Shown: positions 2,178-26,616, numbered from the stretch's first letter. The stretch: 64,000 nucleotides of DNA from Acidobacteriota bacterium (GCA_040755995.1 JBFMAF010000033.1:1-64000); one strand, 5' to 3'. Made by a program: numbers and translations. The notes: a model not told the origin generated them from the letters alone.

Positions 2178-2447
2178 CTAGGCTCTTCCCGCTTCGTGCA
2201 TCTTCGACTGGATAGCTGCGGCGAGCGAGTTGATGTTCTCCCACGCGCTGCGGTCGAACTTCCCGCTGACCAGCTTGATGCCGTATTTCTTCTCTATCTC
2301 CACTATCAACTGGAGTATGTCGATAGAATCGACTTCCAGCGACCCGCCGATCAGCGGCTGGCTGTCGTCGAGCTCCTCCGGTCTCACGTCGGTCAAACGC
2401 AGGCTGCTGACGATGAGCTGCTTCAATTCCGGTCTTATGTCTTCCAT
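2178..2447 (-). CDS. acpP: Acyl carrier protein
   Basis: About 89 aa; LEVDSIDILQLIVEIEKKYGI phosphopantetheine motif. Confidence 0.85.
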   Translation of the reverse strand: MEDIRPELKQLIVSSLRLTDVRPEELDDSQPLIGGSLEVDSIDILQLIVEIEKKYGIKLVSGKFDRSAWENINSLAAAIQSKMHEAGRA

Positions 2448-2479
2448 TCGCTCCGTCCTCAACTTCCCCGTGGGCACAG

Positions 2480-2508
2480 ATTCTCTCTGTGAAGCGCGGT
2501 CGAGTCAA
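2480..2508 (-). promoter_or_regulatory. Putative sigma70 promoter of the ACP gene
   Basis: On the minus strand TTGACT-17 nt-GAGAAT upstream of the ACP start. Confidence 0.4.
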
Positions 2509-2576
2509 GCTTTTCCGAAATCGGGCGCTTTGTCTGGACCGGCGTTCCGCGTATACTGTACGCAGTGGAGCGTGAC

Positions 2577-2939
2577 ATGCAGAGAAACAGGCGCATCATT
2601 TTTTCGGCTGCAATCGTGCTTGCCATCACCCTGCCGGCTTGCGGCCTTCGTGACCGGCTTACGACGACACCGATCGGCGACATCCTCAAGAGCCCTCGGG
2701 AATACGAGGGAAAGACCGTGACCGTGTCGGGTGTCGTGGCGGATGAGGTGTCGTTGATCGCGGTCAAGTACTTCACGGTCGAGGACAAGACCGGCAGGAT
2801 CGCCGTGGTCACGAACCGGATCATGCCGGCGAAGGGCGAGAAGGTTCGCGTGAGGGGAGCCGTGCAGGAGATGTTCTCTCTGGGTACGAGGCGCATTATC
2901 GTCATCAAGGAGGAGCCCCCGTCTGAGACCCAACGGTAG
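2577..2939 (+). CDS. OB-fold domain lipoprotein
   Basis: Lipobox LPAC after a hydrophobic stretch; GKTVTVSGVV...FTVEDKTGRIAV...GEKVRVRGAV OB-fold pattern. Confidence 0.75.
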   Translation: MQRNRRIIFSAAIVLAITLPACGLRDRLTTTPIGDILKSPREYEGKTVTVSGVVADEVSLIAVKYFTVEDKTGRIAVVTNRIMPAKGEKVRVRGAVQEMFSLGTRRIIVIKEEPPSETQR

Positions 2940-3302
2940 CGGCGTCACGCCGCCACCCAGCCTCTTCGCACGGGCGTAGCCCGCTCCGCGAGTGGGCCGA
3001 GGCTCAGACTCCGGCCCCGGTCAGACTGGCGAGGCCTGGCAGGCATATTGTTACCCCTTGACGAAGTGATTATGCCACAAGCAAGGCATACTTCGGCACA
3101 CAGTGATGCAGAGAGATCCGGCTGGCAACTACCGGATGCGACGAGATTCGGCGGGGCCGCACGATGGCTCGATCAGACCGCCGCCGGCCAGCTCAGGCTT
3201 TCCTCGGCTTTCGGCCATCGCTTAGCCCAGTCGCCCACTCTCACACGCGGCACATCGGCTCCGCCGGCGCCAAGAAAGGCCTGCGACGATTCCCGCGGGC
3301 TG

Positions 3303-4619
3303 CTACGAGCGATCTCTCAGGAAGTGCTTGTTGCCGCCCAGGATCTTCTCGGTGGTGAGGCGACGCTGCTTGAGGTTTACCGGGAGGTAGGCGAGAGCGG
3401 TCCAGAACGAGGAGAATGACGATCCGTAGAAGCGGCTCAGTATGCTCCGTTTGCTGTAGAACTCCCGCCAGACGTGCTGCCAGCCTTCGTGAAGCTTGTC
3501 CGGGCTCATGTGCTTCGGCCGGTAGAGCGGCGAGTCGTCGCGGTCCTTCCTCAGCCACCACCGGTCTTGCAGCAACCGCCCTTCATCCGCCAATCGCTTG
3601 TAGAGCCGTGTCCCGGGATAGGGCGTGAGCATGGCGAAGCTCGCCATGAACAGCGGCGCCTTCAGCGCGAAATCCAGCGTGCCGTCGAAAATGCTCTCGT
3701 CGTCCTCGTCCAGCCCCAGCACGAAAGACGCCCACACGGCTACGCCGTTATCCTGCAGCATCCGAACGCTGTCGACGTACTTCGCGGGGTTGTTCTGGTT
3801 CTTTCCACAACCTTTGAGGCTCGCAGGGCTTACGCTCTCGAATCCGATGAACAGCGCCTTGCAGCCTGATGCTGCAAGCTGCTTCACGGTAGCCTCTTTG
3901 CTCAGGCCGTGCAGCGACGCCTGTCCGAACCAGGTCACTCGCAGAGGCTTGAGAGCTTCGAAGAGCTTCAGCGAGTGGGCGGGAATGCCGACGATGTTGT
4001 CGTCCGCGAACATGAGCCAGTGGCCCTTCAGTCCGCGCACCTCGTCGATCGTGTCCTCCACGTCCCGCACCCGGAAGCTCCGCCCGAAGAACTGCGTGAC
4101 CGAACAGAAATCACAATCGAAAGGGCAGCCCCGCGATGCCTGAACGATGTCCATGGGTACGTACCGCTTGGACTTGAAAATATCGCGCCGCGGGCGCGTG
4201 GGGGTCTTGTAGTCCGGTAAGGAATCGCGCCGGTAGAGCCGGCTCAGTGTTCCGCTTCTTGCATCCTCCACGACTCGATCCCACAGCCCCTCGGCCTCGC
4301 CCACCACCACCGCGTCGCAGTGCTCCAAGACCTCCTCCGGCAGCACCGTCGGATGAATGCCTCCCATGACCACCCTTACGCCATGGGCGCGGTAAGCCGC
4401 CGCCAGCTCGTAGGCGCGCGCTACAGTCTTGGTCGAGGCGGTGATAGCAGCCAGGTCCACGCTGAAATCGAGGTCCGTCGACGGGTCGAGCCTCGTGACG
4501 AGATCGTCCTTGAAGCTCACATCCACATCTTTCGGCGTCAGCCCCGCCAGCGTGGCGACGGCAAGATGCTTCAAGAATGCCGAATCCTCGACCGCGGGCG
4601 CCACCAGCTCGATCTTCAC
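3303..4619 (-). CDS. B12-binding radical SAM protein (no. 1)
   Basis: MGGIHPT cobalamin-binding region, RGCPFDCDFC, GFES, LTPYPGT. Confidence 0.9.
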   Translation of the reverse strand: MKIELVAPAVEDSAFLKHLAVATLAGLTPKDVDVSFKDDLVTRLDPSTDLDFSVDLAAITASTKTVARAYELAAAYRAHGVRVVMGGIHPTVLPEEVLEHCDAVVVGEAEGLWDRVVEDARSGTLSRLYRRDSLPDYKTPTRPRRDIFKSKRYVPMDIVQASRGCPFDCDFCSVTQFFGRSFRVRDVEDTIDEVRGLKGHWLMFADDNIVGIPAHSLKLFEALKPLRVTWFGQASLHGLSKEATVKQLAASGCKALFIGFESVSPASLKGCGKNQNNPAKYVDSVRMLQDNGVAVWASFVLGLDEDDESIFDGTLDFALKAPLFMASFAMLTPYPGTRLYKRLADEGRLLQDRWWLRKDRDDSPLYRPKHMSPDKLHEGWQHVWREFYSKRSILSRFYGSSFSSFWTALAYLPVNLKQRRLTTEKILGGNKHFLRDRS

Positions 4620-4686: not shown

Positions 4687-5844
4687 TCATCTAACCAGTC
4701 CGAGCGCTGCTGTGAGGCGCAGGAATGCCCGCGCGGCCAGTCCCACCGGGTCCAGCAGCACGAAGCGGCCGATCAGGTTGTTCACGGGCTCCCCCTGGAA
4801 TCGGGCCACCCTCCGATAGTGGGCGATGAAGTTCAGCACTCGCAATGTGATCTTCCAGCGTGTGGATCCGAAGTAATGAGGTTTGATGAAAGGGATGGCG
4901 AGCCCCGCCTTCACCTCGTCGATGAACTCACCGAAATCACGCGCTCCGGCTGAAGCGCAGACGACGGTGGCAGCGGATAGCGAGTGACTGTCGCCGCCCC
5001 CGACCAGCGGCTTGCCCACTTCGCGTGCGAGCGCGATCACGGCATCATTCTCCTCGCGACTCCTCATCCCGTTGTACTCGAGCGCGTGGATCGCCCATCC
5101 ATACCGCTTGAGGAGATCGCTCGCAGGGATGCTGACCTTCTCGATGCCGCCCTTGGGCAGCAACGGGTGGTTGAGCACGACGAGGCATCCGGTCGCCGCG
5201 AGATGTTCGAAGAGCTCGTCGATCCGCCCGGCGCGGGCTTCACGCTGGAGGGAGGCGTGATCCGATTCGGCGCGTTCCGTCTCCAGGCCCACCACTCCGA
5301 GGTGAAAGAGGTGCTCCTGGAATCGAAACGAAAGCTCCTCGCCAAGGGCCAACCGCTGCCGGTCGTATTGCGTTAGCCGGAGTAGTTCAAGCGATCCGCC
5401 GATGTCGTCGTGATCGGTGATCGCGAGGAGCAGCCGGTCGATCCCGATATTTGGCGAGTCGGCTCGCTCGATCTCGAGTGCGTCCAGGGGGCTGAATGGG
5501 GGATTGTACTTGATATCCGCGTAGTCCAGGTGGTCGACCCAGGCGAGGCCGAATGCCCGCTGCAGAATGCCGCCGAACGGCCGCATGAAGCCGAGCCTGA
5601 TGAAGGCGTTGAGCGGCGCCAGGTCCTCGATCGAGTATCTGGTGTGGTTGTGGATCGAAATCAAGGTGGAAAAGCGGCCGGCTGGATTCGGGCACGGCCG
5701 GTACTCCCAGTTCTCCACCGTCCAGCACGTGGAAGGGGTCGTGCGCAGCTGCACCGGGGAGGCTCTGCGCGATGACTGGAACGACGACTCGATGCCGATC
5801 ACGACGTCCGCCGCGCTGTCGGCAGTCGCAGAGCGACGCATCAT
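4687..5844 (-). CDS. PHP-family metal-dependent phosphoesterase-like protein
   Basis: [26 protein letters not shown] motifs; ATG 5844 overlaps the fabG stop (ATGA). Confidence 0.7.
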
Positions 5845-6575
5845 ACGAGCCCCCCATCCACCGAGATCACCTGACCCGTGATGTAGCTCGCTGCGTTCGA
5901 TCCGAGGAAAACGACCAACGGCGCGACCTCTTCGGGCCGGCCGAACCGCCCCAAGGGTATCTCCGCGAGCAGCCGGCGTCCCTGCTTCTCGATGAGTCTC
6001 TCGGTCATCCTCGTCTCGATAACACCCGGGGATACCGCGTTGACCCTGATGTTGTAACGTCCCATTTCCCGCGCCAGCGACTTCGTGAAGGCGATGACGC
6101 CGCCCTTCGCGGCTCCGTAACTGCACTGGCCTGCCTGCCCGCGGATGCCGCTTGCCGACACGATGTTGGTGATCACACCTCCGCCGAGATGCATCATCCC
6201 CCTGAGAGCCGCTTGCGAGCAGAGATAGGTTCCTCGCAAACTGGCGTCGACGACCGAGTCCCACTGTTCATCCGACATCAGCATCAGCGGGCCGTCGTCG
6301 ATGATCCCGGCGTTGTTCACCAGGTGCGAGACGAGACCGATTCTTTCCTCGATCTCCGCAAATGCGCGCTCGACCTCGGCGCGCACGGCTACATCGACCT
6401 TCTTAGCAACAGCCCGCCCTGAAGCGCTCGTGATCCTCTCGACGACCTCATGGGCACCCGCCTCGTTCGACTTGTAGATCGGGATGACGAAGTGCCCCGC
6501 GCCCGCCAAAGCTTCCGCGATGGCCCGGCCGATACCGCTCGAAGCGCCTGTCACAACAGCGACCGGCTCATTCAC
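5841..6575 (-). CDS. fabG: 3-oxoacyl-ACP reductase
   Basis: [26 protein letters not shown] motifs; GTG start at 6575 preferred because the longer start runs through a repeat. Confidence 0.9.
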
Positions 6576-6589
6576 TGGTGGGATCCTGC

Positions 6590-6624
6590 CCGAAATCCGC
6601 AATTCGAAATTCGAAATCCGAAAT
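6590..6624. repeat. Five tandem heptamers (YCGMAAT)
   Basis: CCGAAAT CCGCAAT TCGAAAT TCGAAAT CCGAAAT. Confidence 0.8.
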
Positions 6625-6699
6625 AGGGCTCGCCTTGCCATTTGACGCTGCACGTCGCCCACCCGGCAACAAGTTGTCGCAAAGTTCGCCCTAACGCGC

Positions 6700-9743: not shown

Positions 9744-11318
9744 TTACGAAGGGCTCCGCGGGGACTGCGAGACCGCGGCGGCGCGGCGATTCTCCTCGAC
9801 CGTCCGGTACCGCTCGCCGGCATTGTAGCTGCAGAAGGGTACGATCTTGCCGTCGGTGGTCACGTACTTGATGATGCAACGGTTGAGGCGCCTCAGGTTG
9901 TAGTTGTACGGATCCATGAAGTGCATGCCCGCTACGAACAGTCCGTTGAACCCTCGCTGATCCCAATCGGGAGCGCGGCCCACGGACTTGTCCTCCCATC
10001 CGTCCAGGCCGTGCAGAAGCCTCTCGAATGTGAGGCCTGCAGGCGCGCCGCGCCGATCGAAGCATGACGAGAGCTGTCGCGTCTGTAGCAGGCGTGAGAC
10101 CCGCCCCCCTAGAAATCCACGCCCGGTTGGAGCCAGCTTGCCGACCGCGTCGAAGAACTTCTCCATGTCAAGGAACTGGTTCACGCATGTCGCGGTGTTC
10201 TCCCTGTCGACGAAGAAGTAGGTGCCGACGGAGCAGTGGGCGTCGCATTCGGCATGGAGCAGCGGTTCGCCGCGAAGAGACGAGAGACCCCGTGTGATCA
10301 GAGATACTGCGTTCAGCGGGAACCAGTCCTCCGGCGTCCGCGTGAGGCCGGTCTGTTTCCCGAACTCGATCGCCATGTCCGCGAGATTGAACGAGGGGGA
10401 TCCGTCTTCCTTCGGCTCAGGGATGCGGCCGATGCGCGCCGCCGGCTGCATGCTGATGCCCGTCACATGCCTGCTGTGCTCGATGGCGAACCGGAAGATC
10501 GGCCCGATCTGGTCGACGTTTATCGACGAAACCACCGTCGGAACCAGCACTATTCGCATGTTGGTCCGGCAGACATTCTCCACCGTACGCAGCTTCTTAT
10601 CGAGCAGGCGTCTCCCTCTAAGCTTCAGGTAAACCTCGTCGTTCATCCCGTCGAACTGCAGGTACAGCGTCTGGAGTCCCTCAGATTCGCAGAGGCTAAC
10701 GTAGCCTCCGTCGCCGAACAGGAGTCCGTTCGTGGCGACCTGAATGTGGTCGAAGCCCATCTGCCGGGCCATCGCTATGATGCGGGGGAATTTCGGGTGA
10801 ATCGTCGGCTCGCCGCCCGAGAACTGTATATGAGTGCAGCCCACGGGAGAACGCCTCTGGATCACAAGCAGCATCTCGCGTATGGTCTCTTCATCGAGGA
10901 AGTAGGCGTCTGGCGAGCCGTCCGTTTCGGCGAAGCAGACGGGGCACTTCAGATTGCAGCGATCGGTGATGTCGATAACCGCGAGCAACGGCGCATCGTC
11001 CTGATGCTCGATTCCGGACTCGCTGCCGTCCGGCCCGAACACCTTCGCGTTCCACGCATCGAGTTTGCGGTAGAGGCGCGAGTCGGAGAAGATGAGCGTC
11101 TCGACGGGCCTGCACCGCGGGCAGTCCATGCGCTGGTAGACCTTGCCTTCCCGCTCCAGGATCCGCGCCAGCAGCCTCGCGCCGCACGCCGGGCAGAGCG
11201 ACTCGGCCTCATCCAGTTGGATGGAGTTTCGATCGTCCCCAGCTCGGCTCTGCCCATGCGCCGATGCGCAGCCGGACGGCGTCAATGATCCGCCGGCCCT
11301 ATCTAGCTGCGTATCCAC
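9744..11318 (-). CDS. Radical SAM protein, tetraether lipid synthase (Tes/GDGT-MAS, MJ0619)-like family
   Basis: N-terminal SLCPAC...GKVY..MDCPRC, DITDRCNLKCPVCFA, QFSGGEPT, ATNG, YLQFDG, CDAHC, GMHFMDPYNY..RL.RCII.Y...DG.IVPFCSYN; start uncertain. Confidence 0.8.
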   Translation of the reverse strand: MDTQLDRAGGSLTPSGCASAHGQSRAGDDRNSIQLDEAESLCPACGARLLARILEREGKVYQRMDCPRCRPVETLIFSDSRLYRKLDAWNAKVFGPDGSESGIEHQDDAPLLAVIDITDRCNLKCPVCFAETDGSPDAYFLDEETIREMLLVIQRRSPVGCTHIQFSGGEPTIHPKFPRIIAMARQMGFDHIQVATNGLLFGDGGYVSLCESEGLQTLYLQFDGMNDEVYLKLRGRRLLDKKLRTVENVCRTNMRIVLVPTVVSSINVDQIGPIFRFAIEHSRHVTGISMQPAARIGRIPEPKEDGSPSFNLADMAIEFGKQTGLTRTPEDWFPLNAVSLITRGLSSLRGEPLLHAECDAHCSVGTYFFVDRENTATCVNQFLDMEKFFDAVGKLAPTGRGFLGGRVSRLLQTRQLSSCFDRRGAPAGLTFERLLHGLDGWEDKSVGRAPDWDQRGFNGLFVAGMHFMDPYNYNLRRLNRCIIKYVTTDGKIVPFCSYNAGERYRTVEENRRAAAVSQSPRSPS

Positions 11319-17442: not shown

Positions 17443-17457
17443 GTGGTACGACCCCGG

Positions 17458-17497
17458 CGGGCTCTCCGCGCCTCCCACTCACCGCGTCCCCGCGTCC
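17458..17497. repeat. Five degenerate tandem octamers
   Basis: CGGGCTCT CCGCGCCT CCCACTCA CCGCGTCC CCGCGTCC, similar to 4636..4683. Confidence 0.6.
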
Positions 17498-17527: not shown

Positions 17528-18724
17528 TCACGCCAGGCTGAAGATGAGGCAGGCGTTGCTTCCGCCGAATCCTGCGGAGACGGTCATTCCGACTGAAGGT
17601 CGCGTGCGCCGTGGTTGTCTCTTTATCCAGTCCACGTTGTTGCTGTCGAGTGGGTTCTTCAGTCGAAGCGTCGGAAACAGCAGTCCGCTTCGCAGGCTGG
17701 CTATGGTTGCCACGGCCTCGATCGCTCCCGCAGCCGCCAGGTTGTGCCCGACGTACGACTTGGTCGAAGACACGGGTATCGCCTCGCGCCGATCCCTGAA
17801 GACACGCTCGTAGGCTTTGGCCTCGGCAGCGTCGTTCAACGGAGTTCCGGTTCCGTGGGCATTGACGAAATCGACGTCGTTCGGGCCGATGCCGGCCTTC
17901 CGCATCGCGCGCTCCATGCACAGCGCCAGGCCCGCTCCACCTTCGTGCGGCGCCGTTGGATGATAGGCGTCGTTGCTCATCCCCCATCCTCTGAGCACCG
18001 CGATGACACCGGCGCCCCGCTCGCGAGCGGCAGGCAACGGTTCCATCGCCAGGATGGCCGCGCCCTCGCCGATGTTCAGCCCCTTGCGTTCGCAATCGAA
18101 CGGTATGCAGGGGTCGGGGTCGAGCGCCTGGAGCGCATTGAACCCGCTGAGCGTGAACCGGCACAGTGCGTCGCTCCCGCCGGCGAGCACGAGCGATGTC
18201 GAGCCGTCGAGCAGCATCTGCGCGCCGGTAGAGATCGCGATCGCCCCCGAGGCGCAGGCGACGCTCAGCGCGCACCGGGGCCCGGCAGTGCCGAGATCTG
18301 CGGCCACAGCGTCGGTCACGTGTCCGGGCTGGTAGGAAGTGAGCAAAGAGAAGTCGCCGCCCCTGTAGCATCCTCGCGGATCGGAAGCGACCGCAGGGCG
18401 CACGGCCGTCAGGCCGCCAACTGTCGTGGCAAGGACGACGCCGCATTGCGTCATGTCCCTGATAGAGCCAGCCGCGTCCCGCGCGGAGAGAATCGCCAGC
18501 TGGTCAGTGCGCGAGTATCGGAAACCCTTGCGATTCTGGACATGGAGCGCCCCCGTGATCTGGCAGACGGTCGGGGCCGGTTGGATGTCGATGTCGAAAA
18601 GGCTCAGAGGGGACAGGCAGCTGCGGCACTCCTCGAGACTCCTTTGGACCGCGTCGAGGTTGCACCCGAGGGGACTCTTGATTCCGATGCCGGTGACGGC
18701 GACGGCATCGCGTGCGGTGCTCAT
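17528..18724 (-). CDS. fabF: Beta-ketoacyl-ACP synthase (FabF-like, KS-alpha)
   Basis: VACASG, DAYH, NAHGTGT, KSYVGH, AGFGG; ATGA overlap with the upstream gene. Confidence 0.9.
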   Translation of the reverse strand: MSTARDAVAVTGIGIKSPLGCNLDAVQRSLEECRSCLSPLSLFDIDIQPAPTVCQITGALHVQNRKGFRYSRTDQLAILSARDAAGSIRDMTQCGVVLATTVGGLTAVRPAVASDPRGCYRGGDFSLLTSYQPGHVTDAVAADLGTAGPRCALSVACASGAIAISTGAQMLLDGSTSLVLAGGSDALCRFTLSGFNALQALDPDPCIPFDCERKGLNIGEGAAILAMEPLPAARERGAGVIAVLRGWGMSNDAYHPTAPHEGGAGLALCMERAMRKAGIGPNDVDFVNAHGTGTPLNDAAEAKAYERVFRDRREAIPVSSTKSYVGHNLAAAGAIEAVATIASLRSGLLFPTLRLKNPLDSNNVDWIKRQPRRTRPSVGMTVSAGFGGSNACLIFSLA

Positions 18725-19743
18725 GTGCCGCGAGTGCCCTTCCCGCCGGCGCCCTCGGCGGGCCAGATGTCGAAGAAGTTGAACCACTGCTCATGGTGCT
18801 GGTGGCAGCATTTTTCCAAAAAGGCCACTGCGCGGACGAGCCCGTGGCGCAAGTCTGCGTCACGGTCGCCGGTGTGCGGCAGGCGTATCGGATCCCCCAT
18901 GGCTACGCGGTATCGCAGCCAGCCCTTCCGCACGACGACGCACGGCAGCACAGGCGCGCCGGAGAAGTAGGCCAGGAAGAACGGCCCCAGCGGGAACGAA
19001 GCCGGCTCGCCCAAGAACGGTACCCAAGCACACGACGAATTATATGTACGGTCTCCCTGCATCGCAACGATGTCATTGGCTCGAAGCGCGTATAGAAGCC
19101 GCACGGATGCGAGCGGATCATCGTTGAGCGCCACGATCTCGAGACGCTCGTTTGCCATGAGATCCCTGAGCGTGATCTCGGCAGGGTTGTCTGTTTCCAC
19201 GACTCGCGCCTCGTACACCCGCCGTCCGTGCAGTTCCAGCAGGCGAGAGCCGTACTCGTAGTTGCCGATGTGCGCCGTCCAGACTATAAGCCCGTTTCCT
19301 TCGGCAAGGCAGCCGTCGATCGTGCCGGCGCCGCGTTCGGGGTCGGCCAGCATGGACAAAAGGCTGGAATCATCCGCTCGCGGTACATAGCAATACGACA
19401 CCATGAAATCACAGTATGAATAGAATATCTTGAATGCCTTGTACCGCAGCCACAGCCGGCCGTGTGGGCCGAGCCGCATAAGGTTTCTCATCAGCGCCGC
19501 CCGCTCCCTCCTCAGAACCACGAAGAAGATCATCGCGGTCACGGCGGCGATCGGGGGATGTATGAAGCGGGGCAGCCTGGGGATCGTCGAAAAGACCAGG
19601 CGCAGGAAGAAAGGTGTGTGGTATCCGTGATCGTACCATCTGACCTGCCCCGGCGAATCGGCCTGCGCCTGCGAAGTCGTGTTCACGAGCACTGGTGGAA
19701 AGCGAGCGGAGGGCGTGCCCGGGGCTCCGCGCGGCCCGCTCAT
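18721..19743 (-). CDS. LpxL/lysophospholipid-family acyltransferase
   Basis: TAHIGNYE, QGDR, PFLGEPASFP.GP, QWFNFFDIW. Confidence 0.85.
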   Translation of the reverse strand: MSGPRGAPGTPSARFPPVLVNTTSQAQADSPGQVRWYDHGYHTPFFLRLVFSTIPRLPRFIHPPIAAVTAMIFFVVLRRERAALMRNLMRLGPHGRLWLRYKAFKIFYSYCDFMVSYCYVPRADDSSLLSMLADPERGAGTIDGCLAEGNGLIVWTAHIGNYEYGSRLLELHGRRVYEARVVETDNPAEITLRDLMANERLEIVALNDDPLASVRLLYALRANDIVAMQGDRTYNSSCAWVPFLGEPASFPLGPFFLAYFSGAPVLPCVVVRKGWLRYRVAMGDPIRLPHTGDRDADLRHGLVRAVAFLEKCCHQHHEQWFNFFDIWPAEGAGGKGTRGT

Positions 19744-21221
19744 GCCGCTCCTTCCTGGAGGAGCCCCCGGAGATCCGGAACGACCCTTCGCTTGAGCACC
19801 GAGTACATGTGCGCGATCTCGGTCTCGGAGTATCCGACACCCATGAGCGTCTTCACCGCTTCGGCGACGGCATTCCGGTTGCTCAGCCCGAATCGCTCGT
19901 GGTACTCGATCAGCACGCTCGTCATCTGCGATTGCGAGAGCGTCGGAGTGCCGATCGGAAGGTCATTGTACGAGCACTCGCTGCCCGCCTCGATCCTCTG
20001 AGGGTCCCAGCCGGCATCCCTTGCCTGCTGGACGATCTCGCATTTTGGAAAGACCCGCAGACAGAAATGATACGGGAGCACTGACGGTTTAGGCAGGCGC
20101 CCGAGCCAGTCCAGCGTCTGCCGCGCCTGCTCGTAAGTCTCGGTCGGGAAGCCGAACATGGTCGAGATATTCACCACAACTCCCCGCTCCTGCGTGTAGC
20201 CGATGATCTTCGCAGCCTTGTCCAGATCCACTCTCTTGCGGATGAGCCGCTGGAGATCCTCGCTTCCCGTCTCGACGGCGTACGTAAACCAGATCGCTCC
20301 CGCCTCGATCGCGCGATCCACGAACTCCTCGTCGACAATGTCGGCGCGCAGCCCGTTCGAGAAGTACAGCCGTACCTTCAGCCCGTCCGACCCGATCGAC
20401 CGGAAAAGGTCGAGTGCCCGCTGCGCTTTGACGTTGAATATGTCGTCGATGATATAGAAGTCCTCGATGCCGAACCGCTCGTGGAGATCCACCATCTCGC
20501 GGTAGACGTTGTCCGCGCTGCGCAGCCGCACGCTCTTCCAGTGGCTGAAGCAGAAGGCGCAGGAATACGGGCAGCCGCGACTGGTCAGCAGGACCCCCTG
20601 GCGGCGATGGTTGTAAGAATAGCTGAGCTGCGTGGCGTAGTGGTCCAGGTCCACCAGGTCGTATGCGGGAAACGGGAGCTCGTCAATCGCCGGAATCTCT
20701 CCAGCGTCGGGCGCCTCCACGACGTCCTCGCCGGATCTATGGATGACCCCGGGCAGGCCGGCGATGGCGTGCCCCGCAAGGATGCTCGCGAGCGTCCGCT
20801 CCCCCTCGCCCTTCACCGCCACGTCGATCTCCGGGCACTCGCGAAGAAGATCGCAGCCCATCGCACGCACAATTGGGCCGCCCGCTACGATCAGCGCATC
20901 CGACGACGCCCGCGTGAGAGATGCAATTCGCCTCAGCTCGCGAGCGAAGAAGTTGATCGACCGTATCCCCACTACGTCAGGCCGGAAGCTCTCCACGGTC
21001 CTTAGGTACTCTTCGTCCCCGGCACAGTGCAGGGACGACTCCACGATGCGGATCTCCACGCCATTGACCGCTTCTCGCGCATAGGCCGCAAGATACATGA
21101 GCCCGATCGGAGGGATGTGCACCTCGTACGGCATCCCTGCCCCGACCCACGCGTCCATGTCGTTGGCCTCCACAAGCAGTACACGCGGCCCGGACGACCC
21201 GCCCAGCTTCCAACTACTCAT
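19740..21221 (-). CDS. B12-binding radical SAM protein (no. 3)
   Basis: PPIGLMYLAAY, AGGP, GEGE, RGCPYSCAFC, FGFPTET; ATG 21221 overlaps the upstream stop. Confidence 0.9.
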   Translation of the reverse strand: MSSWKLGGSSGPRVLLVEANDMDAWVGAGMPYEVHIPPIGLMYLAAYAREAVNGVEIRIVESSLHCAGDEEYLRTVESFRPDVVGIRSINFFARELRRIASLTRASSDALIVAGGPIVRAMGCDLLRECPEIDVAVKGEGERTLASILAGHAIAGLPGVIHRSGEDVVEAPDAGEIPAIDELPFPAYDLVDLDHYATQLSYSYNHRRQGVLLTSRGCPYSCAFCFSHWKSVRLRSADNVYREMVDLHERFGIEDFYIIDDIFNVKAQRALDLFRSIGSDGLKVRLYFSNGLRADIVDEEFVDRAIEAGAIWFTYAVETGSEDLQRLIRKRVDLDKAAKIIGYTQERGVVVNISTMFGFPTETYEQARQTLDWLGRLPKPSVLPYHFCLRVFPKCEIVQQARDAGWDPQRIEAGSECSYNDLPIGTPTLSQSQMTSVLIEYHERFGLSNRNAVAEAVKTLMGVGYSETEIAHMYSVLKRRVVPDLRGLLQEGAA

Positions 21222-22435
21222 GCTGTGCCGCTCCCGTCCCTCGTCCAGGGCGAGGTTTCGTCGCTTGGCGACGCTCTCTCTCCGACAAAGACGACATGCG
21301 CCAGCGGCAGCCTGTTCACCATCTGCTGCTGCCTCACCGTAAGACCGGCGCTCTCGAGCGCCCGGCGATACTCGCCGGCCGGCAGCACCACAGGCGGTCT
21401 GCCGGTCCCCGACGCCTTGAAGAGGATCCGATCCAGACCGAGCGCAACCGCGGACCGGCCGCCTCGGGTTAGTTCGTGAACCCGGAAGATCAACTTGCCG
21501 CCGGGCGCGAGGGCCGCGCAGCAACGGTCGAGCAGCCGCAGCTGCTCGGACGCGTCCAGGTACTGGAGCACGTCGATGATCATGATCAGGCCGGCATCGG
21601 AGAGCTCGAGCTCGCGCGCGTCCGCGATGCTGAGCCGGGCACCAAGCGGGGCCAGGGCAGTTGCGGCTGCCTCGATCCGACTGCCATCGAGATCGCAACC
21701 GACCAGGGACCGGCCGGGCTCGGAGTGCCACGCGAAGGCCAATGCGATCCCGTCGCCGCAGCCGAGATCGACCGCCGGACCCTTGCCGAGATCCGCAGTG
21801 GCCAGGAAATCGAATATTCGATCGAGGCGCATTTTCAAAGCGACGCGAAGACGAACGGACGCCTTCGTTCCATTGAAAAGCGACCTGACATGCCTGCGCC
21901 GTTCCGCAAGCGCGCGGGCGCTCGTGCCCTGTGAACGAAGCCGAAAGGCGAAGTAGACCGGCACCGCTGCGGCCAATCCGAGTGCCACGCCCAGGACGAT
22001 GCTCCCGAGCACCCAGCTCCAGAGGAATCCGGCCACACCGACGGCCTGCACGTCGGAGAGCGACATGTTGATGAACGAGCCGTGGAGCAGGGCATAGCCC
22101 GTCTGGACGGAGAAGAGAATCAGAAACGGCTGCAGGAAAGGGTTGTTTATGAATGTCGCTGCGTAGGTCAGGGGCTTGTTGAGCCGAAGCACGATAGCGA
22201 GGCCTATGGCAACGAGCGATTGCAGCCCGTAGATCGGAACCACGCCCACGAACACACCGAGAAACGCTGCTGCCGCGGCACGGCGCGGCTGCAGACCTTC
22301 GTTCATGAGATCTCCGAGCAGCCCGCGGATGTTTCGCAGAAAGATCCGGGGCGGGCGCCGGTCGGGCGTCTCGTCCGGGCGAGCTACCTCGGAGGTCGCG
22401 TCGACAGGGTGCGGCTGCATTTCCCGGTCCACCAT
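21218..22435 (-). CDS. DUF2062 membrane domain fused to a class I SAM methyltransferase
   Basis: P.R.AAA.FLGVFVGVVPIYG.Q...LRLNK...NNP (DUF2062) followed by VDLGCGDG and IDVLQY. Confidence 0.8.
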   Translation of the reverse strand: MVDREMQPHPVDATSEVARPDETPDRRPPRIFLRNIRGLLGDLMNEGLQPRRAAAAAFLGVFVGVVPIYGLQSLVAIGLAIVLRLNKPLTYAATFINNPFLQPFLILFSVQTGYALLHGSFINMSLSDVQAVGVAGFLWSWVLGSIVLGVALGLAAAVPVYFAFRLRSQGTSARALAERRRHVRSLFNGTKASVRLRVALKMRLDRIFDFLATADLGKGPAVDLGCGDGIALAFAWHSEPGRSLVGCDLDGSRIEAAATALAPLGARLSIADARELELSDAGLIMIIDVLQYLDASEQLRLLDRCCAALAPGGKLIFRVHELTRGGRSAVALGLDRILFKASGTGRPPVVLPAGEYRRALESAGLTVRQQQMVNRLPLAHVVFVGERASPSDETSPWTRDGSGTA

Positions 22436-22439
22436 GGGC

Positions 22440-22865
22440 TCAGGTGACGACAAGCGAAAGCTCCCCCTTGGCCACCACCTCGCCGGAAACCCGTATGACG
22501 GCGTCGATGCATGCCATCGGGCTCGATGCCGCCGTCAGGCGGACTTCGATAGTGAGCTCGGACCCCGGCGCGACCGGCTTGAGGAACTTGAACCGGTTCA
22601 CCGCCACCAGAAGGTGGTCGCCGGCGGCGGCGCCCTCGGCTCGGCCGGCCGCCTGAAGCACGGCGGCCGTCTGAGCCGCTGCCTCGATGAGGAAAACTCC
22701 TGGCAGCACGGACCTGCCCGGGAAATGTCCCGCGAAGAACTGCTCATCCGGGTCGATGTACTTCAAGGCAACGCACCTCTTCCCCGGCTCAACCTCGACC
22801 ACGCGGTCGATCCACAGAAACGGCGGTCGATGTGGTATCAGAGAAAGGATTTCGTTCTTGTCCAA
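22440..22865 (-). CDS. fabZ: 3-hydroxyacyl-ACP dehydratase
   Basis: IPHRPPFLWIDRV, FFAGHFPG..VLPGV.LIEAAAQ, F.KPV.PG. Confidence 0.9.
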   Translation of the reverse strand: MDKNEILSLIPHRPPFLWIDRVVEVEPGKRCVALKYIDPDEQFFAGHFPGRSVLPGVFLIEAAAQTAAVLQAAGRAEGAAAGDHLLVAVNRFKFLKPVAPGSELTIEVRLTAASSPMACIDAVIRVSGEVVAKGELSLVVT

Positions 22866-23552
22866 CTACCTCGCTCCTTGCGGCAGGTACAGGTCGAACA
22901 GCTTCGGGTCAAGAGGCGAGTTCACCGATTCGATCTCTACCCGGTAGACGCTGTTCACGCCGTTCTTCCCGTCCACCTCCAGAAGCCGCAGCATGAAGCT
23001 GCCCTTGTCCAGATCGACTCTGATGTAGTTGACCCTCTGCCTGAATCGTTCCGACCGCGGAACCAGATTCAGGTGATAGGCGGCCTGATCCTCGCCGGCC
23101 GAGATATTGAAACTCGCTTTCAAGTTTGCGAGCGAGCTATCGGAGCTGAAGTACTTCTGTGCCCTCCTCACCTGGTCGCCTACCCTGATGACCTCCGTGT
23201 TCTTCTTCTCCCTGCCAGTCGTGACGTTCAGGTAGTCGCCGCTGTAGATGATGCGCATGGCGTCGGGGTCCGTGTATTCCAGGCGGAACTTGTCGGTTCC
23301 CGAGGCATGGAATATGCCGTGAAAGACCACAGGTCGTACGAAGAGCCTGGATGTCCGCGTTTCGGTAACCGTACCGGACCAGGTGGAATTCCTCTTCTGC
23401 GCCGCCTGAACGCCCTGCCAGACGCGGTCCAGCAGCTCATCACTCCCGGCCGGGGCTGCGGCGCCGAGATGAGCGTGGGTCCCAAAAGCCACGACGACAA
23501 TCGGGAAAGCAAGGCGCGACCGAACGGTGCGTCTCATCCATCGATCTTCCAC
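22866..23552 (-). CDS. LolA-family outer-membrane lipoprotein carrier
   Basis: Signal peptide; FRLEYTDPD, LNLVPRS, C-terminal NSPLDPKLFDL..P. Confidence 0.8.
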   Translation of the reverse strand: MEDRWMRRTVRSRLAFPIVVVAFGTHAHLGAAAPAGSDELLDRVWQGVQAAQKRNSTWSGTVTETRTSRLFVRPVVFHGIFHASGTDKFRLEYTDPDAMRIIYSGDYLNVTTGREKKNTEVIRVGDQVRRAQKYFSSDSSLANLKASFNISAGEDQAAYHLNLVPRSERFRQRVNYIRVDLDKGSFMLRLLEVDGKNGVNSVYRVEIESVNSPLDPKLFDLYLPQGAR

Positions 23553-23598: not shown

Positions 23599-24309
23599 CT
23601 ACAGCCCGAAGTATCGAAAAAAGAGCGACCAGAAGCAGATGCGGACGGTGTCGCGGACTGGGTTCATTTTGGATCGTGCCTTGCCTCCGTCGTAGACGAG
23701 GCTCACCGGCGCGTGCGCGACCGTCGCGCCGGACCTGCAGAGCTTCAGCAGGATCTCCATTTCGATCTCGTACTTGCGCGACCTGAGTTTCAGCGGCCGG
23801 AGCTTCTCCAGGCTGACCAGGCGAAATCCGCACTGGCTATCCTTGACGGTAGTTCCTGCGAGGCGGGACGCGAGTTTGCTGCCGACGCTGTTGGAGAAGT
23901 GCCGCTCGGCAGGCATGAGGCGCTTGTCGAAATTGCGGGCGCCTATGACGATGTCGGCCCCGGTCTGCAGCGCTGTCTTGACGAGGGACGGGATCTCGTC
24001 GGGGCGGTGTTGGCCGTCGGCGTCCATGAACAGGACGTGGCTGAAGGCGCAGTCGCAAAGATGGGCGAGGCCCCGGCGGACTGCGGCACCCTTGCCCTGA
24101 TTGCTGACCTGCAGAAGGCAGGTGGCTCCCGCTGCTTCCGCGGCTTCTGCTGTGCCGTCGTTCGAGCCGTCGTCCACGACCAGCACCGATGACACGTGGT
24201 CCAGCGCGCCGCGGACGACCGAGCCGATCGTCTCGGCCTCGTTGTAGGCGGGGATGAGGGCGCAGATCGACATCGTTGCCGGCGCGTGGGGCTGCGAATT
24301 GGAGTTCAT
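23599..24309 (-). CDS. GT2-family glycosyltransferase (DPM1-like)
   Basis: IPAYNE, VDDGSND, NQGKGAA, MDADGQH, DSQCGFR. Confidence 0.9.
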   Translation of the reverse strand: MNSNSQPHAPATMSICALIPAYNEAETIGSVVRGALDHVSSVLVVDDGSNDGTAEAAEAAGATCLLQVSNQGKGAAVRRGLAHLCDCAFSHVLFMDADGQHRPDEIPSLVKTALQTGADIVIGARNFDKRLMPAERHFSNSVGSKLASRLAGTTVKDSQCGFRLVSLEKLRPLKLRSRKYEIEMEILLKLCRSGATVAHAPVSLVYDGGKARSKMNPVRDTVRICFWSLFFRYFGL

Positions 24310-24310
24310 C

Positions 24311-25066
24311 TCAGACCAGGACGAATTCGTAGCCGCGGGCTCTCAGCTCGTCGATGAGCAGCGGGAGCACGTCGAGCATCCCGGTGGATGCGGCCATCGC
24401 GTTGTCGTGCAGAAGGACGATGTCTCCGGGCTGGACCCGGGCGAGCACCCGCGCGACTATGTTGGCAGGCTTGCGAGCGATTGTATCGAACGTCCGGAGT
24501 CGCCAGGACACGTACTCGAGGCCGTAGCGCGCGAGATAGCGGCTGAGCAATGGATGCTTCAAGCCAACGGGGGACCTGAAGTGCCGGGGGCGCGTTCCGC
24601 AGTGCAGTGCAAGGGCCTCCTGTGTCCTCTGGATCTCGTCGCGCAGTCTGCCGGGCGAAAGGAAGCAGAAGAGCGGTGGATGCGAATACGTGTGGTTGGC
24701 GACAAGATGCCCATCTCCTACGATCCGCCGCATCAGATCGGGCTGCTGGGCGGCCCGTTGGCCGACGATGAAAAACGTCGCGCGCACGTTCTTCTCCCGT
24801 AGAATGTCCAGGAGCCGGCCCGTTTGATACGAGTTCGGCCCGTCGTCGAACGTCAGGGCCACGCAAGGTCTGCTGCAGTCGACGTGCGCGCGGTTTTGCA
24901 TCAGCAGCTGCGAGCGCGGGTGGAGCAGCGCGTAGACGGCAGCCGCGTTGCCCGCGACGCACACCGTCACGCACACCAGGATTCTCATCGGCTGCGGAGG
25001 GGAGGCGATGAGCCAGATGCCGTTTGCAACAAGCACCAGTACAGCAAACGCACCGGCTCTCATCAC
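24311..25066 (-). CDS. Polysaccharide deacetylase (CE4/NodB) family protein
   Basis: ALTFDDGP, NHTYSH, FRSPVG, IVLLHD; N-terminal membrane segments. Confidence 0.9.
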   Translation of the reverse strand: MMRAGAFAVLVLVANGIWLIASPPQPMRILVCVTVCVAGNAAAVYALLHPRSQLLMQNRAHVDCSRPCVALTFDDGPNSYQTGRLLDILREKNVRATFFIVGQRAAQQPDLMRRIVGDGHLVANHTYSHPPLFCFLSPGRLRDEIQRTQEALALHCGTRPRHFRSPVGLKHPLLSRYLARYGLEYVSWRLRTFDTIARKPANIVARVLARVQPGDIVLLHDNAMAASTGMLDVLPLLIDELRARGYEFVLV

Positions 25067-25127
25067 GCCAATCTCCTTTCAGGCATGAGAACGCCGATAG
25101 GCGAGGGAGGACGGCGAATGAGTGCCT

Positions 25128-26561
25128 TCAAGGCGCGTCGGCCGGCTGCGAGCACGGAAGGCGATGATCCCTCAGGTACGCCCTTGGATCCATGAGTCTC
25201 TGCGTTCTCATCATGATCCGCATCATTCTTGGGACCTGTGACGGTCGGACCCCCCTGAGCCAGCTCCACCACTTCTTCCTGCCACCCAGGTGGAGAACGC
25301 TTCGCCGCCATGTCTCGCAGTAGAGCTCGAAGAACTTCTCTGCCGGGAGTCTTGGCTGCCACAACAGATGATGCAGGTCATACAGGCTCCAGTCGAAGAC
25401 TTCCACCTTCTCCCGCATGCTCTCGAAGTAGTGTGTGCCCGGCAACGGCGTGAGGATCGTGAACCCGACCCGGTACAGCTTGTGCTCATCGAGGAAGTCC
25501 CACAGCGCCGCGAAATCATCCTCGGTGTAGTCGGGGTTTATGATGAAGTTGCCGGTCACACCAAACCCGAGACGGCGGGCCGTGCGCACAGCCTCTACGG
25601 TGCTGGCCACGTCGAAATCCTTGTTCAACGAGTCCAGCCCGGCATGAGTCGGGGACTCGAAACCGAAGAAGATATCGAAGTCCCGCGCCAGCGGCCTCCA
25701 GAGCTCCAGCAGCTCTCCGCCGCCGGCGACCAGGTCGACCCGCGACTGCACCAGCATCCACGCCTTGCGCTCGGGCGATGCCAGCAGGGCCCGCGCAAGA
25801 TCCGTGCTGCGCTCCTTCTCCGCCCAGAAGATGTCGTCGATCACGAACACGTTGTGGCCGACGGCCTCGAAGTCCTTCCTCACGTTCGCGGCAGAATGGA
25901 ACCTGGTGGTCCCCTTGTAGAACTGCCAGACGGAACAGAACCTGCAGCGATACGGGCAGCCCCGCGTCGTTTCCATCGTCCACACCGGCATGTAGTTGAG
26001 ACAGCAGTAGTGCCGTTGGTAGCGAGCGACCAGCGAGTGGTCGGGCGGTGCGACGCTTCCGAGATCCTGAGGGCCGCTGTTCTCTTTCGGCCGCTGAAAC
26101 ACGCCTCCGGTCGGTCGCGTCATTGCGGACGGTACGCCCTCGACCGACCCGCGCGCCTGAAGCGCCTCGCATAGGTCGCCCATCACGCGCTCCCCTTCGC
26201 CGATGCAGATCGTGTCAACACCCTCGGCGTCGGCCAACGCGGTCGGATAGGCCGACGCGGCGTGTCCCCCGACCACCACGTGAATCGAGTGGTCGAATTC
26301 CCTGATCTCGCGAGCCAGGCGCGCGGTAGCCGGCGCGTCCAGAATGTGCACGCACGAGATCCCCGCGACCTGCGGCCGCTCGCGCTCCAGCAACCCCCGT
26401 ATCGCCGCGCCCTCGAAACGCAAGTCGACGAGGGATACGGAGTGACCGCGGGATTGAATCGCGGCGGCAACGTACTCGAGGCCGAGCGGCTCGGTCTGGA
26501 AGAACGGAGCCAGGCCGAACTGCACCGAGCCCGGATGAGGCTTGATCAGGAGAACCTTCAC
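25128..26561 (-). CDS. B12-binding radical SAM protein (no. 4), resembling HpnR-type lipid methylases
   Basis: EPLGLEY, VGGHAAS, GEGE, RGCPYRCRFCSVW.FY, GFES, LTPLPGT; start GTG 26561 or 26570. Confidence 0.85.
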   Translation of the reverse strand: MKVLLIKPHPGSVQFGLAPFFQTEPLGLEYVAAAIQSRGHSVSLVDLRFEGAAIRGLLERERPQVAGISCVHILDAPATARLAREIREFDHSIHVVVGGHAASAYPTALADAEGVDTICIGEGERVMGDLCEALQARGSVEGVPSAMTRPTGGVFQRPKENSGPQDLGSVAPPDHSLVARYQRHYCCLNYMPVWTMETTRGCPYRCRFCSVWQFYKGTTRFHSAANVRKDFEAVGHNVFVIDDIFWAEKERSTDLARALLASPERKAWMLVQSRVDLVAGGGELLELWRPLARDFDIFFGFESPTHAGLDSLNKDFDVASTVEAVRTARRLGFGVTGNFIINPDYTEDDFAALWDFLDEHKLYRVGFTILTPLPGTHYFESMREKVEVFDWSLYDLHHLLWQPRLPAEKFFELYCETWRRSVLHLGGRKKWWSWLRGVRPSQVPRMMRIMMRTQRLMDPRAYLRDHRLPCSQPADAP

Positions 26562-26607
26562 CGTATCCACCCGATTCCCGGCAGCCGCCCCAAGTCCATC
26601 GCCCGGC

Positions 26608-26616
26608 AGTATACCA
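26608..26616 (-). promoter_or_regulatory. Extended -10 element for the lipid cluster
   Basis: Minus strand TGGTATACT about 40-50 nt upstream of the first cluster gene. Confidence 0.45.

Follow-up and report, generated by a model that had tools for sequence, protein, structure and literature searches.

A radical-SAM-rich fatty-acid/polyketide gene cluster with a cluster-specific tetraether synthase paralog in an Acidobacteriota bacterium

The described systems closest to the gene cluster reported here, which lies in a 64,000-nucleotide stretch of DNA from an Acidobacteriota bacterium (GCA_040755995.1, JBFMAF010000033.1:1-64000; hereafter the window), are the aryl polyene (Ape) and flexirubin clusters, a candidate ladderane cluster of anammox bacteria, and the tetraether synthase (Tes, or GDGT-MAS) family of radical S-adenosylmethionine (rSAM) enzymes. 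PMC13459092 describes archaeal Tes as accompanied by Grs and Gmm, enzymes that tailor glycerol dialkyl glycerol tetraethers (GDGTs), and gives three Cys and one Met as the ligand types of its C-terminal [4Fe-4S] cluster, which is proposed there to hold the first substrate radical in C-C coupling. Bacterial Tes homologs have been proposed for the synthesis of branched GDGTs (brGDGTs) by Zeng et al. 2022 (PMC8941075), an activity that PMC11868695 treats as still unconfirmed, and PMC13159169 places Acidobacteria among organisms without Mss homologs and suspects an alternative route. Anammox Cluster I (KustE3603-3608) comprises candidate ladderane genes encoding an acyl carrier protein (ACP), FabZ, a heterodimer of an active and a dead FabF, and rSAM enzymes (10.64898/2026.05.19.726425). 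A literature search found no description of the present cluster or of a Tes homolog inside a ketosynthase (KS)/ACP cluster, with supplementary tables not covered.

The window corresponds to positions 1-64000 of contig C33 in G000, a 7.7-Mb, 56-contig assembly with ~62% G+C (G labels denote genomes, C labels contigs of G000, and L labels captured loci). Real genes were told from shadow open reading frames (ORFs) by codon-position GC, and their proteins were scanned against Pfam and NCBIfam. These calls and scans define the cluster as a minus-strand run of ~25 kb that extends from 26786 down to 2178 (Table 1). It fits best into the known classes as a radical-enzyme-rich variant of aryl-polyene-type assembly and export clusters with a cluster-specific Tes paralog, and the best reading of its product is a radically methylated, likely C-C-coupled glycolipid with aryl-polyene-like export. 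All genes that the first-pass annotation had listed as a mostly co-oriented set in 2178..26616 are present on the minus strand in the Pfam and NCBIfam scans. Its statement that they are often translationally coupled also holds, as 4-nt overlaps occur at five junctions (methyltransferase/B12-binding rSAM C, B12-binding rSAM C/LpxL, LpxL/KS, chain length factor (CLF)/KASIII, and FabG/PHP), and at three more (CE4/GT2, LolA/FabZ, and Tes/large protein) the genes lie 0-5 nt apart. The ATG of B12-binding rSAM C at 21221 overlaps the stop codon of the DUF2062-methyltransferase; translational coupling in the cluster is real.

The locus shares with aryl polyene and flexirubin clusters a KS with an inactive CLF, two ACPs, a ketoreductase (KR), a hot-dog dehydratase (DH), a lysophospholipid-acyltransferase-type (LPLAT) enzyme, a family 2 glycosyltransferase (GT2), LolA, and a methyltransferase. 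The MMPL exporter and adenylating loader of aryl polyene clusters also have counterparts, which lie inside the cluster in relatives and on contig C30 in G000. What sets the locus apart from these pigment clusters are its five rSAM enzymes, a family 4 carbohydrate esterase (CE4) deacetylase, a PHP-like protein, and a protein in which glycoside-hydrolase-like (GH-like), LolA-like, and Omp85-like parts are fused. Moreover, the best PDB match of the KS is FabF at 218 bits, with the solved aryl-polyene KS 6qsp_A lower at 139 bits, and the adenylation enzyme of the relatives is of the amino-acid type. No curated flexirubin or Ape cut-off is reached (FlxB 239 bits vs 340, LolA2_flexi 42.7 vs 125, ApeI-like 27.3 vs 28.5, and ApeP-like 17.9 vs 27), and none of the scanned window ORFs encodes an aryl-starter enzyme (tyrosine ammonia lyase (TAL), chorismate lyase, or DarB type). 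Like anammox Cluster I, the locus has an ACP and a FabZ of its own, an active and a dead homolog of FabF, and rSAM enzymes; unlike Cluster I, it lacks a TIGR04072-class enzyme, belongs to another phylum, and adds export, glycosyl, acyl-transfer, and Tes-like genes. The gene content thus agrees with the earlier proposal that the locus combines aryl polyene/flexirubin-type parts with the anammox-like logic of ACP, FabZ, KS, dead KS, and radical SAM enzymes. The count of five radical SAM enzymes in that proposal stands as well, with the correction that four bind B12 and one is a Tes-family member.

The fifth rSAM enzyme belongs to the Tes/GDGT-MAS family and has lost the N-terminal cluster motif. 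It scores 342 bits against NF045702 (340.6 in the genome search), under the curated cut-off of 450, and matches the archaeal GDGT-MAS MJ0619 (PDB 7tol) with 269 bits and an E-value of 8e-79. We aligned it in 14 rows (alignment A1) with archaeal Tes, a second Tes on contig C31, paralogs on contig C10, the Bryobacterales homolog L006, and the orthologs in L001, L002, L004, L105, and L107. The rSAM motif CX3CX2C (C121/C125/C128) and the rubredoxin Cys residues are invariant in all rows, as are C362, C481, C496, and M468, which correspond to the 3Cys+Met set that binds the C-terminal [4Fe-4S] cluster and, residue by residue, are predicted to be those ligands. The rubredoxin-like site of the window protein has four Cys rather than the 3Cys+His of archaeal Tes. 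The window protein and 5/5 aligned orthologs lack the motif of the N-terminal [4Fe-4S] cluster, CPxxCGxCxxH (3Cys+His), or have it in degenerate form; it is present in the archaeal rows, the C31 Tes, L006, and the C10 paralogs. Because the ligands of the C-terminal cluster are kept and that cluster is the one proposed for C-C coupling, the catalytic core looks retained. Tail-to-tail C(sp3)-C(sp3) coupling is the predicted activity. The radical C-C coupling that the first-pass annotation had suggested for the locus thus gains specific support from a Tes-family enzyme with its catalytic cluster ligands, and the coupling itself stays a prediction. Archaeal Tes acts on isoprenoid diethers, unlike the present enzyme, which is embedded in a fatty-acid/polyketide cluster; as archaeal Tes has Grs and Gmm, so the Tes-like enzyme here is accompanied by B12-type rSAM enzymes.

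In a quick IQ-TREE analysis of 61 rows with a midpoint root, for which the careful search is unfinished, the Tes-like subfamily forms a clade with 100% support and a stem of 1.04 inside a 23-row clade (100%) that also holds the C31 Tes. The window enzyme is a long-branch paralog with 39-41% identity to the C31 Tes. It resembles the published bacterial Tes homologs in family, phylum, and nesting with the C31 Tes, and differs from those candidates, which are stand-alone genes, in its long branch and its confinement to the cluster. The C31 gene (C31:37682-39148; L086 9566-11203) scores 563 bits, above the cut-off of 450, and its neighbors are unrelated (a phosphonate-binding-like protein, a Ser/Thr kinase-PAP2 fusion, a DegT aminotransferase, and DUF2142). 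For any core membrane-spanning lipid, this gene makes a better candidate than the window copy. Since this Tes and a housekeeping FabF (663 bits, contig C49) are encoded elsewhere in the genome, the chain-building and Tes set of the cluster is an extra one. The same genome has a second cluster of type II fatty acid synthase/polyketide synthase (FAS/PKS) genes with Tes-family members at C10 ~259000-271200 (L084 11103-19800 and L085 72-3155). It encodes a nitroreductase-family protein, a FabA-like DH, a dead CLF, a KS (421 bits to fabF), an ACP, a KR, two TrsS/Tes-like rSAM enzymes in which the N-terminal cluster motif occurs along with a zinc ribbon, a plain rSAM enzyme, a 337-aa ORF without assignment, and an rSAM-SPASM protein.

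The other four rSAM enzymes (A to D) carry cobalamin-binding domains. Their nearest NCBIfam names are BchE/HpnJ for A, BchE/HpnR for B, ApyD/P-methyltransferase for C, and HpnR for D. Enzyme C reaches 147 bits with ApyD and 129 bits with Sden_1168, both far under the cut-offs, and the hopanoid C-3 methylase HpnR (TIGR04367) is only the nearest named relative of enzyme D, at 211.9 bits vs a cut-off of 650. Against the ladderane-associated family TIGR04072, with a cut-off of 360, A, B, C, and D score 74.4, 67.4, 85.5, and 70.4 bits, and the earlier suggestion of a ladderane-type B12 rSAM logic is not borne out at the family level. Enzyme A is 30% identical to a B12-rSAM of a cousin cluster in genome G166. 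Matches to the B12-binding domain PF02310 number 38 in G000, 28 of them above the cut-off, with several tandem sets on contigs C44 and C9; the cobalamin-radical-SAM complement of this genome is unusually large.

Among the chain-building enzymes, the KS has an intact Cys-His-His triad and scores 296 bits with TIGR03150 (cut-off 494), while the CLF-like protein has Gly in place of the active-site Cys and has lost both His positions. The KS also matches the heterodimer entry 9s5h_B at 212 bits; the CLF scores 98 bits with FabF and 54 bits with 9s5h_C, and none of its 58 PDB matches is the partner chain of 6qsp. The placement of the pair is one by bit scores only. When the KASIII-like protein was aligned with E. 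coli FabH (1hn9), the Cys was kept, His244 was replaced by Ser, and Asn274 by His. These changes are common to its orthologs in L001 and L108, from which we infer a role in acyl transfer or priming rather than decarboxylative condensation. A gene in L186 that was first taken as the housekeeping FabH aligned poorly and is not FabH; the comparison uses 1hn9 instead. FabG scores above the cut-off of NF009466 (249 bits vs 222), and ACP2, which conserves the serine motif, reaches 75 bits with ACP_for_OlsHI (cut-off 130).

The headgroup and acyl-transfer genes have similarly distant named relatives. The GT2 scores 111 bits with AglJ and 87 bits with PpgS, both under the cut-offs, and the CE4 protein, in which residues 1-19 and 26-44 form hydrophobic segments, reaches 135.7 bits with NodB (cut-off 240). 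Judged from these families, the two enzymes would make a deacetylated hexosamine donor. The LpxL/PatA-type acyltransferase scores 66 bits with the PIM acyltransferase PatA (cut-off 209), and the DUF2062-methyltransferase has three hydrophobic segments. The sequence signal of the PHP-like protein is weak (NCBIfam E 7e-5; PHP_C E 0.006), and a profile search of PDB sequences retrieved PHP-family phosphoesterases at only E 0.5. Its HxH, TDHD, and DSH motifs are invariant in four orthologs, and the Atlas places it with PHP clusters at 0.93 (TM 0.58-0.61), where some neighbors fuse the fold to glycosyltransferases.

The large secreted protein next to the Tes-like gene gave a single match in a profile search against PDB sequences, a LolA-like (DUF1329) segment of 50 residues with an E-value of 4e-4, and LolA_like was detected in 9/9 orthologs. 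A whole-length AlphaFold2 (AF2) model built from 9 sequences is confident for residues 50-400 (pLDDT 70-88), and residues 45-402 form a (beta/alpha)8 fold that matches clan GH-A (4zn2, Z 19.9, rmsd 4.0 over 329 residues, 10% identity). The acid/base-like Glu E157 is invariant in the orthologs and the nucleophile position on beta-7 is not conserved; we do not claim hydrolase activity for this domain. The last 340 residues of the model have a pLDDT <40, and the C-terminal 604 aa were re-modeled with 24 sequences (pLDDT 82.8, pTM 0.77). The first half of the new model matches LolA-superfamily chains, and Foldseek retrieved CdiB (E 1.7e-8) and BamA/TamA barrels with TM scores of 0.5-0.59 by target (rmsd 6.5-7.4). 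Pfam Omp85 has no match in the protein and the Atlas lead stands only at 0.80; five of the nine orthologs end in Phe. At the level of predicted fold, the models speak for an outer-membrane barrel whose periplasmic domain is a lipid carrier, and this predicted fusion of an Omp85-like barrel to a LolA-like domain lends support to the outer-membrane delivery that had been suggested for the product. Homologs of the C-terminal 600 aa, at 24-35% identity, occur in 112 of the 301 phylum genomes described below, mostly without FAS context.

Orthologs of the Tes-like enzyme were searched for in 185,579 species genomes and in JGI metagenomes. Five loci from species genomes and five from metagenomes encode one at 54-60% identity, the nearest being in metagenome-assembled genomes of Bryobacteraceae, Terracidiphilus, and Acidobacteriaceae, and the Atlas neighbors of two cluster proteins are likewise mostly Acidobacteriota. 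Further cluster genes are present at 10/10 loci with a Tes-like ortholog of at least 54% identity. The rSAM and FAS genes thus co-occur in other genomes, as the first-pass annotation expected. The Tes-like gene is followed by the large-protein gene in 8/8 loci with a 3' flank, and FabG comes next in the 7/7 that reach that far. The remaining shared genes (CE4-GT2-LolA-FabZ-methyltransferase, B12-rSAMs B, C, and D, ACP1, ACP2, KS, CLF, KASIII, and LpxL) recur in permuted blocks. B12-rSAM B is the most conserved cluster protein (70-73% identity in L001, L105, and L108), and lower identities are found for B12-rSAM D (59-61%; L001, L004, L105), B12-rSAM C (59%; L107), LpxL (53%; L107), CE4 (49-55%), GT2 (54-60%), LolA (43-53%), FabZ (54-58%), the methyltransferase (46-50%), and CLF (45-51%). 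ACP1 orthologs (52-55%) directly follow the PHP gene in L002 or, in L107, an rSAM gene that stands in its place. In contrast, eight further bacterial loci with Tes homologs (Bryobacterales L006, Lachnospiraceae, Clostridia, Desulfotignum, Calditrichia, and Desulfobacteria) contain none of the cluster genes, save one weak FabG-like match. The Tes-like subfamily is rare and found only inside this cluster (10/10 contigs).

This rarity extends to the phylum, which we sampled with 300 other genomes (301 with G000; the tallies include one unpublished genome, G024, on which no conclusion depends). Tes-family matches at E<=1e-40 occur in 173 of the 301 genomes including G000. Among the matches listed, no protein of the 300 other genomes exceeds 43% identity to the window Tes-like enzyme, and no match to B12-rSAM B in them exceeds 41%; both other genomes of the same GTDB family are without cluster-type proteins. 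A comparison with 1.84 billion 50%-identity representatives placed one full-length sequence (56%) and six fragments (50-73%) in the Tes-like subfamily, the next best being at 42%. The 90% cluster of the full-length representative comprises 68 members, whose only names are 'hypothetical' or 'uncharacterized radical SAM'.

In relative L105, the methyltransferase and Tes-like genes flank one for an MMPL/HpnN-like exporter, confirmed by Pfam. In L001, an adenylation enzyme lies between KASIII and ACP2 and scores above the cut-off of TIGR01733 for amino-acid adenylation (323 bits vs 317). G000 has an AMP-binding/MMPL pair at C30:29556-33633 (L184/L185) with 44-46% identity to the in-cluster genes of the relatives. 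About 7 kb downstream of the pair, a truncated duplicate at C30:40900-41901 fuses the 3' ends of the AMP-binding and MMPL genes. Cousin clusters were found in three of 16 inspected genomes. The one in G166 has three B12-rSAMs, GT2, LpxL, ACP, KS, CLF, a full-length large protein, CE4, and MMPL, and no Tes-family match at 1e-40. Those in G085 and G237 have MMPL, GT2, LpxL, LolA, KS/CLF, FabG, ACP, and the large protein and are without B12-rSAMs; G237 carries a Tes-family gene of 32% identity 6 kb away. Given these clusters, the export and assembly core is older and more widespread, with the radical enzymes as variable additions.

Taken together, these results point to a conserved accessory cluster of a few Acidobacteria that likely builds its own acyl chain with a private KS/CLF pair and would remodel and couple it by radical chemistry, attach it to an anchor bearing an amino sugar, and deliver it to the outer membrane, a reading to which we give about an even chance. 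In this pathway, the adenylation enzyme (in-cluster in relatives, on C30 in G000) would load a starter acid, possibly an amino acid, onto ACP2, and B12-rSAM B and the KASIII-like transferase would process the starter and pass it on. KS/CLF, FabG, and FabZ would then extend the carrier-bound acyl or polyketide chain without a dedicated enoyl reductase, and the four B12-rSAMs may remodel it by C-methylation and/or ring formation, after which the Tes-like enzyme would couple tails C(sp3)-C(sp3), between chains or within one lipid. GT2 and CE4 would supply a polyprenyl-phosphate hexosamine donor for the headgroup, the LpxL/PatA-type acyltransferase would attach the product to an anchor bearing the amino sugar, and MMPL, LolA, and the barrel protein would carry the lipid across the periplasm to the outer membrane. 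The product, its methylation and cyclization, and its headgroup are all predicted from gene content. More tentatively, and with clearly less than even expectation, the product may represent a new class of outer-membrane bolaform or macrocyclic glycolipid whose de novo chains are methylated or cyclized and then welded by a trimmed Tes paralog.

Several observations weigh against the accessory-glycolipid reading. All four B12-rSAMs lie far under every curated NCBIfam cut-off, so that they may methylate, cyclize, or do something else, and the chemistry of the Tes-like enzyme may differ from that of Tes, as its score is under the Tes cut-off and the N-terminal [4Fe-4S] motif is lost. No enoyl reductase was found within the cluster, so that the chains may be either saturated or polyene, and to our knowledge Tes chemistry is known solely on saturated methyl termini. 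The TM scores of the barrel are moderate (0.39 to 0.59 normalized by target). B12-rSAM A and the two signal-peptide ORFs in front of the Tes-like gene lack counterparts in the flanks captured from close relatives. The MMPL exporter is Pfam-confirmed in L105 only, with 842-920-aa ORFs at that place in L004, L005, L107, and L109, and no enzyme for the final glycosyl transfer was identified among the cluster genes.

Part of the gene set is also compatible with other products. Rhizobial acpXL-fabZXL-fabF-lpxXL genes put a special long acyl chain on lipid A, and Francisella FlmF2/NaxD or ArnC/ArnD supply a hexosamine decoration to it. The cluster would analogously remodel lipid A or lipopolysaccharide if ACP, FabZ, KS, and the LpxL-type enzyme provided a special secondary acyl chain, GT2/CE4 a hexosamine, and the radical enzymes branching or cross-linking. 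Such a role would suit the Lip_A_acyltrans domain of the acyltransferase, the dedicated ACP, FabZ, and KS pair, the polyprenyl-phosphate-type GT2 adjoining a membrane-anchored CE4, and the occurrence of the PHP-like fold fused to glycosyltransferases in other proteins. The acyltransferase, however, scores best with PatA and far under all LpxL cut-offs, a product exported by Lpt would have no need of LolA, MMPL, and the LolA-like/Omp85-like barrel, and no ArnT/FlmK-type GT-C enzyme lies in the cluster. We consider this explanation unlikely. A variant of an aryl-polyene/flexirubin-like pigment, in which KS/CLF make a polyene, the B12 enzymes only methylate, and the Tes-like protein does not couple tails, would account for the missing enoyl reductase and for the fit of KS, dead CLF, two ACPs, KR, DH, LPLAT, GT2, LolA, methyltransferase, MMPL, and adenylation enzyme to the Ape part list, and FlxB and LolA2_flexi (43 bits) are indeed the nearest named relatives of two proteins. 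Yet it conflicts with the unreached flexirubin and ApeI-like cut-offs, the FabF-like KS, the amino-acid type of the adenylation enzyme, the lack of a TAL, chorismate lyase, or DarB-type gene, and the retention of all ligands of the coupling cluster in the Tes-like protein; we judge it improbable.

The cluster might instead serve a core membrane-spanning lipid, with iso-diabolic acid/brGDGT chains coupled by the Tes-like enzyme and C5/C6 methyls and cyclopentane rings added by the B12 enzymes. This idea draws on the parallel to the archaeal toolkit of Tes, Grs, and Gmm (PMC13459092), on the published candidacy of bacterial Tes homologs for brGDGTs (PMC8941075), and on the alternative pathway suspected for Acidobacteria, which have no Mss homologs (PMC13159169). 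Against it stand the separate, above-cut-off Tes on C31 with its unrelated neighbors, the lack of glycerol, ether-bond, or phospholipid genes in the cluster, and export genes that point to the outer membrane. Because orthologs of the cluster-type Tes-like enzyme and of B12-rSAM B were not found in the 300 other phylum genomes, among the matches listed, a core membrane lipid is doubtful, and we regard this pathway as quite improbable. The modified membrane lipid of the first-pass annotation is accordingly doubtful in the sense of a core lipid, as the locus is a rare accessory one. Radical cyclization of a polyunsaturated chain to a ladderane-like cyclobutane lipid would follow the ACP, FabZ, KS/dead-KS, and rSAM logic of anammox Cluster I (10.64898/2026.05.19.726425), and the 212-bit match of the KS to 9s5h_B is in line with it. 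The B12-rSAMs, however, reach 67-86 bits vs the TIGR04072 cut-off of 360, the organism lies outside the anammox planctomycetes, the CLF is closer to FabF than to 9s5h_C (98 vs 54 bits), and no phytoene-desaturase-like gene was seen, which makes this outcome extremely unlikely.

Table 1. Features of the cluster, from its 5' to its 3' side on the minus strand, in window coordinates
Feature	Position	Strand	Evidence
B12-binding radical SAM D, HpnR-like	25128..26786	-	Pfam B12-binding 66.7 bits, Radical_SAM 49.2 bits
CE4 (NodB-type) deacetylase, N-terminal hydrophobic segments	24311..25066	-	Polysacc_deac_1 115.8 bits
GT2, polyprenyl-phosphate sugar synthase type	23599..24309	-	Glycos_transf_2 82.6 bits
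LolA-family periplasmic carrier	22866..23552	-	Pfam LolA 28.4 bits, above cut-off 23.6
FabZ-type 3-hydroxyacyl-ACP dehydratase	22440..22865	-	FabA-like 89.1 bits; NF000582 127.2 bits, above cut-off 113
DUF2062 membrane domain + class I SAM methyltransferase fusion	21218..22453	-	DUF2062 81 bits, Methyltransf_25 38.7 bits
B12-binding radical SAM C	19740..21221	-	B12-binding 62.7 bits, Radical_SAM 69.6 bits
LpxL/PatA-family (LPLAT) acyltransferase	18721..19743	-	Lip_A_acyltrans 60.1 bits
Active ketosynthase KS, FabF-like	17528..18724	-	Ketoacyl-synt N and C domains
CLF-like dead KS partner	16252..17478	-	N-terminal KS domain alone recognized
KASIII-like protein, altered triad	15251..16255	-	ACP_syn_III_C 58.3 bits
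ACP2, DltC/OlsHI-ACP-like carrier protein	14794..15054	-	PP-binding 21.9 bits
B12-binding radical SAM B	13162..14784	-	B12-binding 45.2 bits, Radical_SAM 58.3 bits
Signal-peptide repeat protein, cluster membership doubtful	12296..13111	-	No Pfam/NCBIfam family match
Signal-peptide protein, 203 aa, cluster membership doubtful	11453..12064	-	No Pfam/NCBIfam family match
Tes-family (tetraether synthase/GDGT-MAS) radical SAM paralog	9744..11318	-	NF045702 342 bits
Large secreted protein, ~1,000 aa	6700..9738	-	GH-like, LolA-like, and Omp85-like parts
FabG-type 3-oxoacyl-ACP reductase	5841..6662	-	adh_short_C2 215 bits
PHP-like predicted metal-dependent phosphoesterase	4687..5844	-	Weak NCBIfam/Pfam matches and motifs
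B12-binding radical SAM A with DUF4070	3303..4619	-	Pfam Radical_SAM, B12-binding, DUF4070
Small lipoprotein-like OB-fold ORF, possible cluster member	2565..2939	+	Third-position GC (GC3) 0.81; DUF5818 E 4e-5, under cut-off; lipobox-like LPAC motif
ACP1	2178..2477	-	PP-binding 30.2 bits

The true start of B12-rSAM D is probably internal, at about 26651-26561. Since window position 1 is the contig end, the cluster may be truncated on its 3' side, and promoter and terminator scans, with counts inside the range of shuffles, give no information on the limits of the operon. Five ORFs were rejected as genes by codon-position GC and lack of matches: 2505-2948(-), probably an antisense shadow of the plus-strand lipoprotein-like ORF, 2459-2908(-), 22305-23786(+), 26719-27189(-), and 17439-18446(-). 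An 80-aa ORF at 15036-15278(-) has no match and overlaps the KASIII-like gene by 28 nt. Neither of the two signal-peptide ORFs listed as doubtful members was found in the clusters of relatives. The longer of them and a second secreted protein at 214-1953(-) have delta-60/SBBP-like 'WQ(R/K)..GG' repeats in common, and one of the two carries a CARDB domain; paralogs of the shorter repeat protein (12296-13111) are encoded on contig C30 (L184 5468-6529).

The rest of the window (27-64 kb) contains genes unrelated to the cluster. Beside the cluster, genes for an extracytoplasmic-function-type (ECF-type) sigma factor, a VWA/YfbK protein, and a TonB_C protein lie in a row at 29277-32836(+), which looks like a separate envelope-signaling unit. 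Farther on, 39548-44962(-) holds the gene of an rSAM-SPASM enzyme that also contains a PqqD domain (43517-44962); next to it lie an AAA-like ORF, the gene of a 939-aa C25 (gingipain-family) peptidase, and an S24-like ORF. This group may be a maturation set of the type that acts on peptides made by the ribosome and modified after translation (RiPPs).

How bacteria synthesize membrane-spanning, heavily branched lipids is an open question that underlies the brGDGT palaeoclimate proxies. The locus offers a compact unit in which a Tes-family enzyme lies beside presumed partner genes for chain-building, tailoring, headgroup, and export, and it could reveal a substrate for a bacterial Tes homolog together with the reactions of four cobalamin radical SAM subfamilies. 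GH-like, LolA-like, and Omp85-like parts in one chain make up a previously unnoted architecture of outer-membrane proteins, and aryl-polyene-type export machinery would here be reused for a different lipid. Should the product indeed belong to the tentatively proposed class of bolaform or macrocyclic glycolipids, the cluster would be the first in which Tes-type coupling is tied to an assembly line of the fatty-acid/polyketide kind, and the orphan biomarkers of anoxic peat and soil that are branched long-chain diacids or tetraether-like might come from it.

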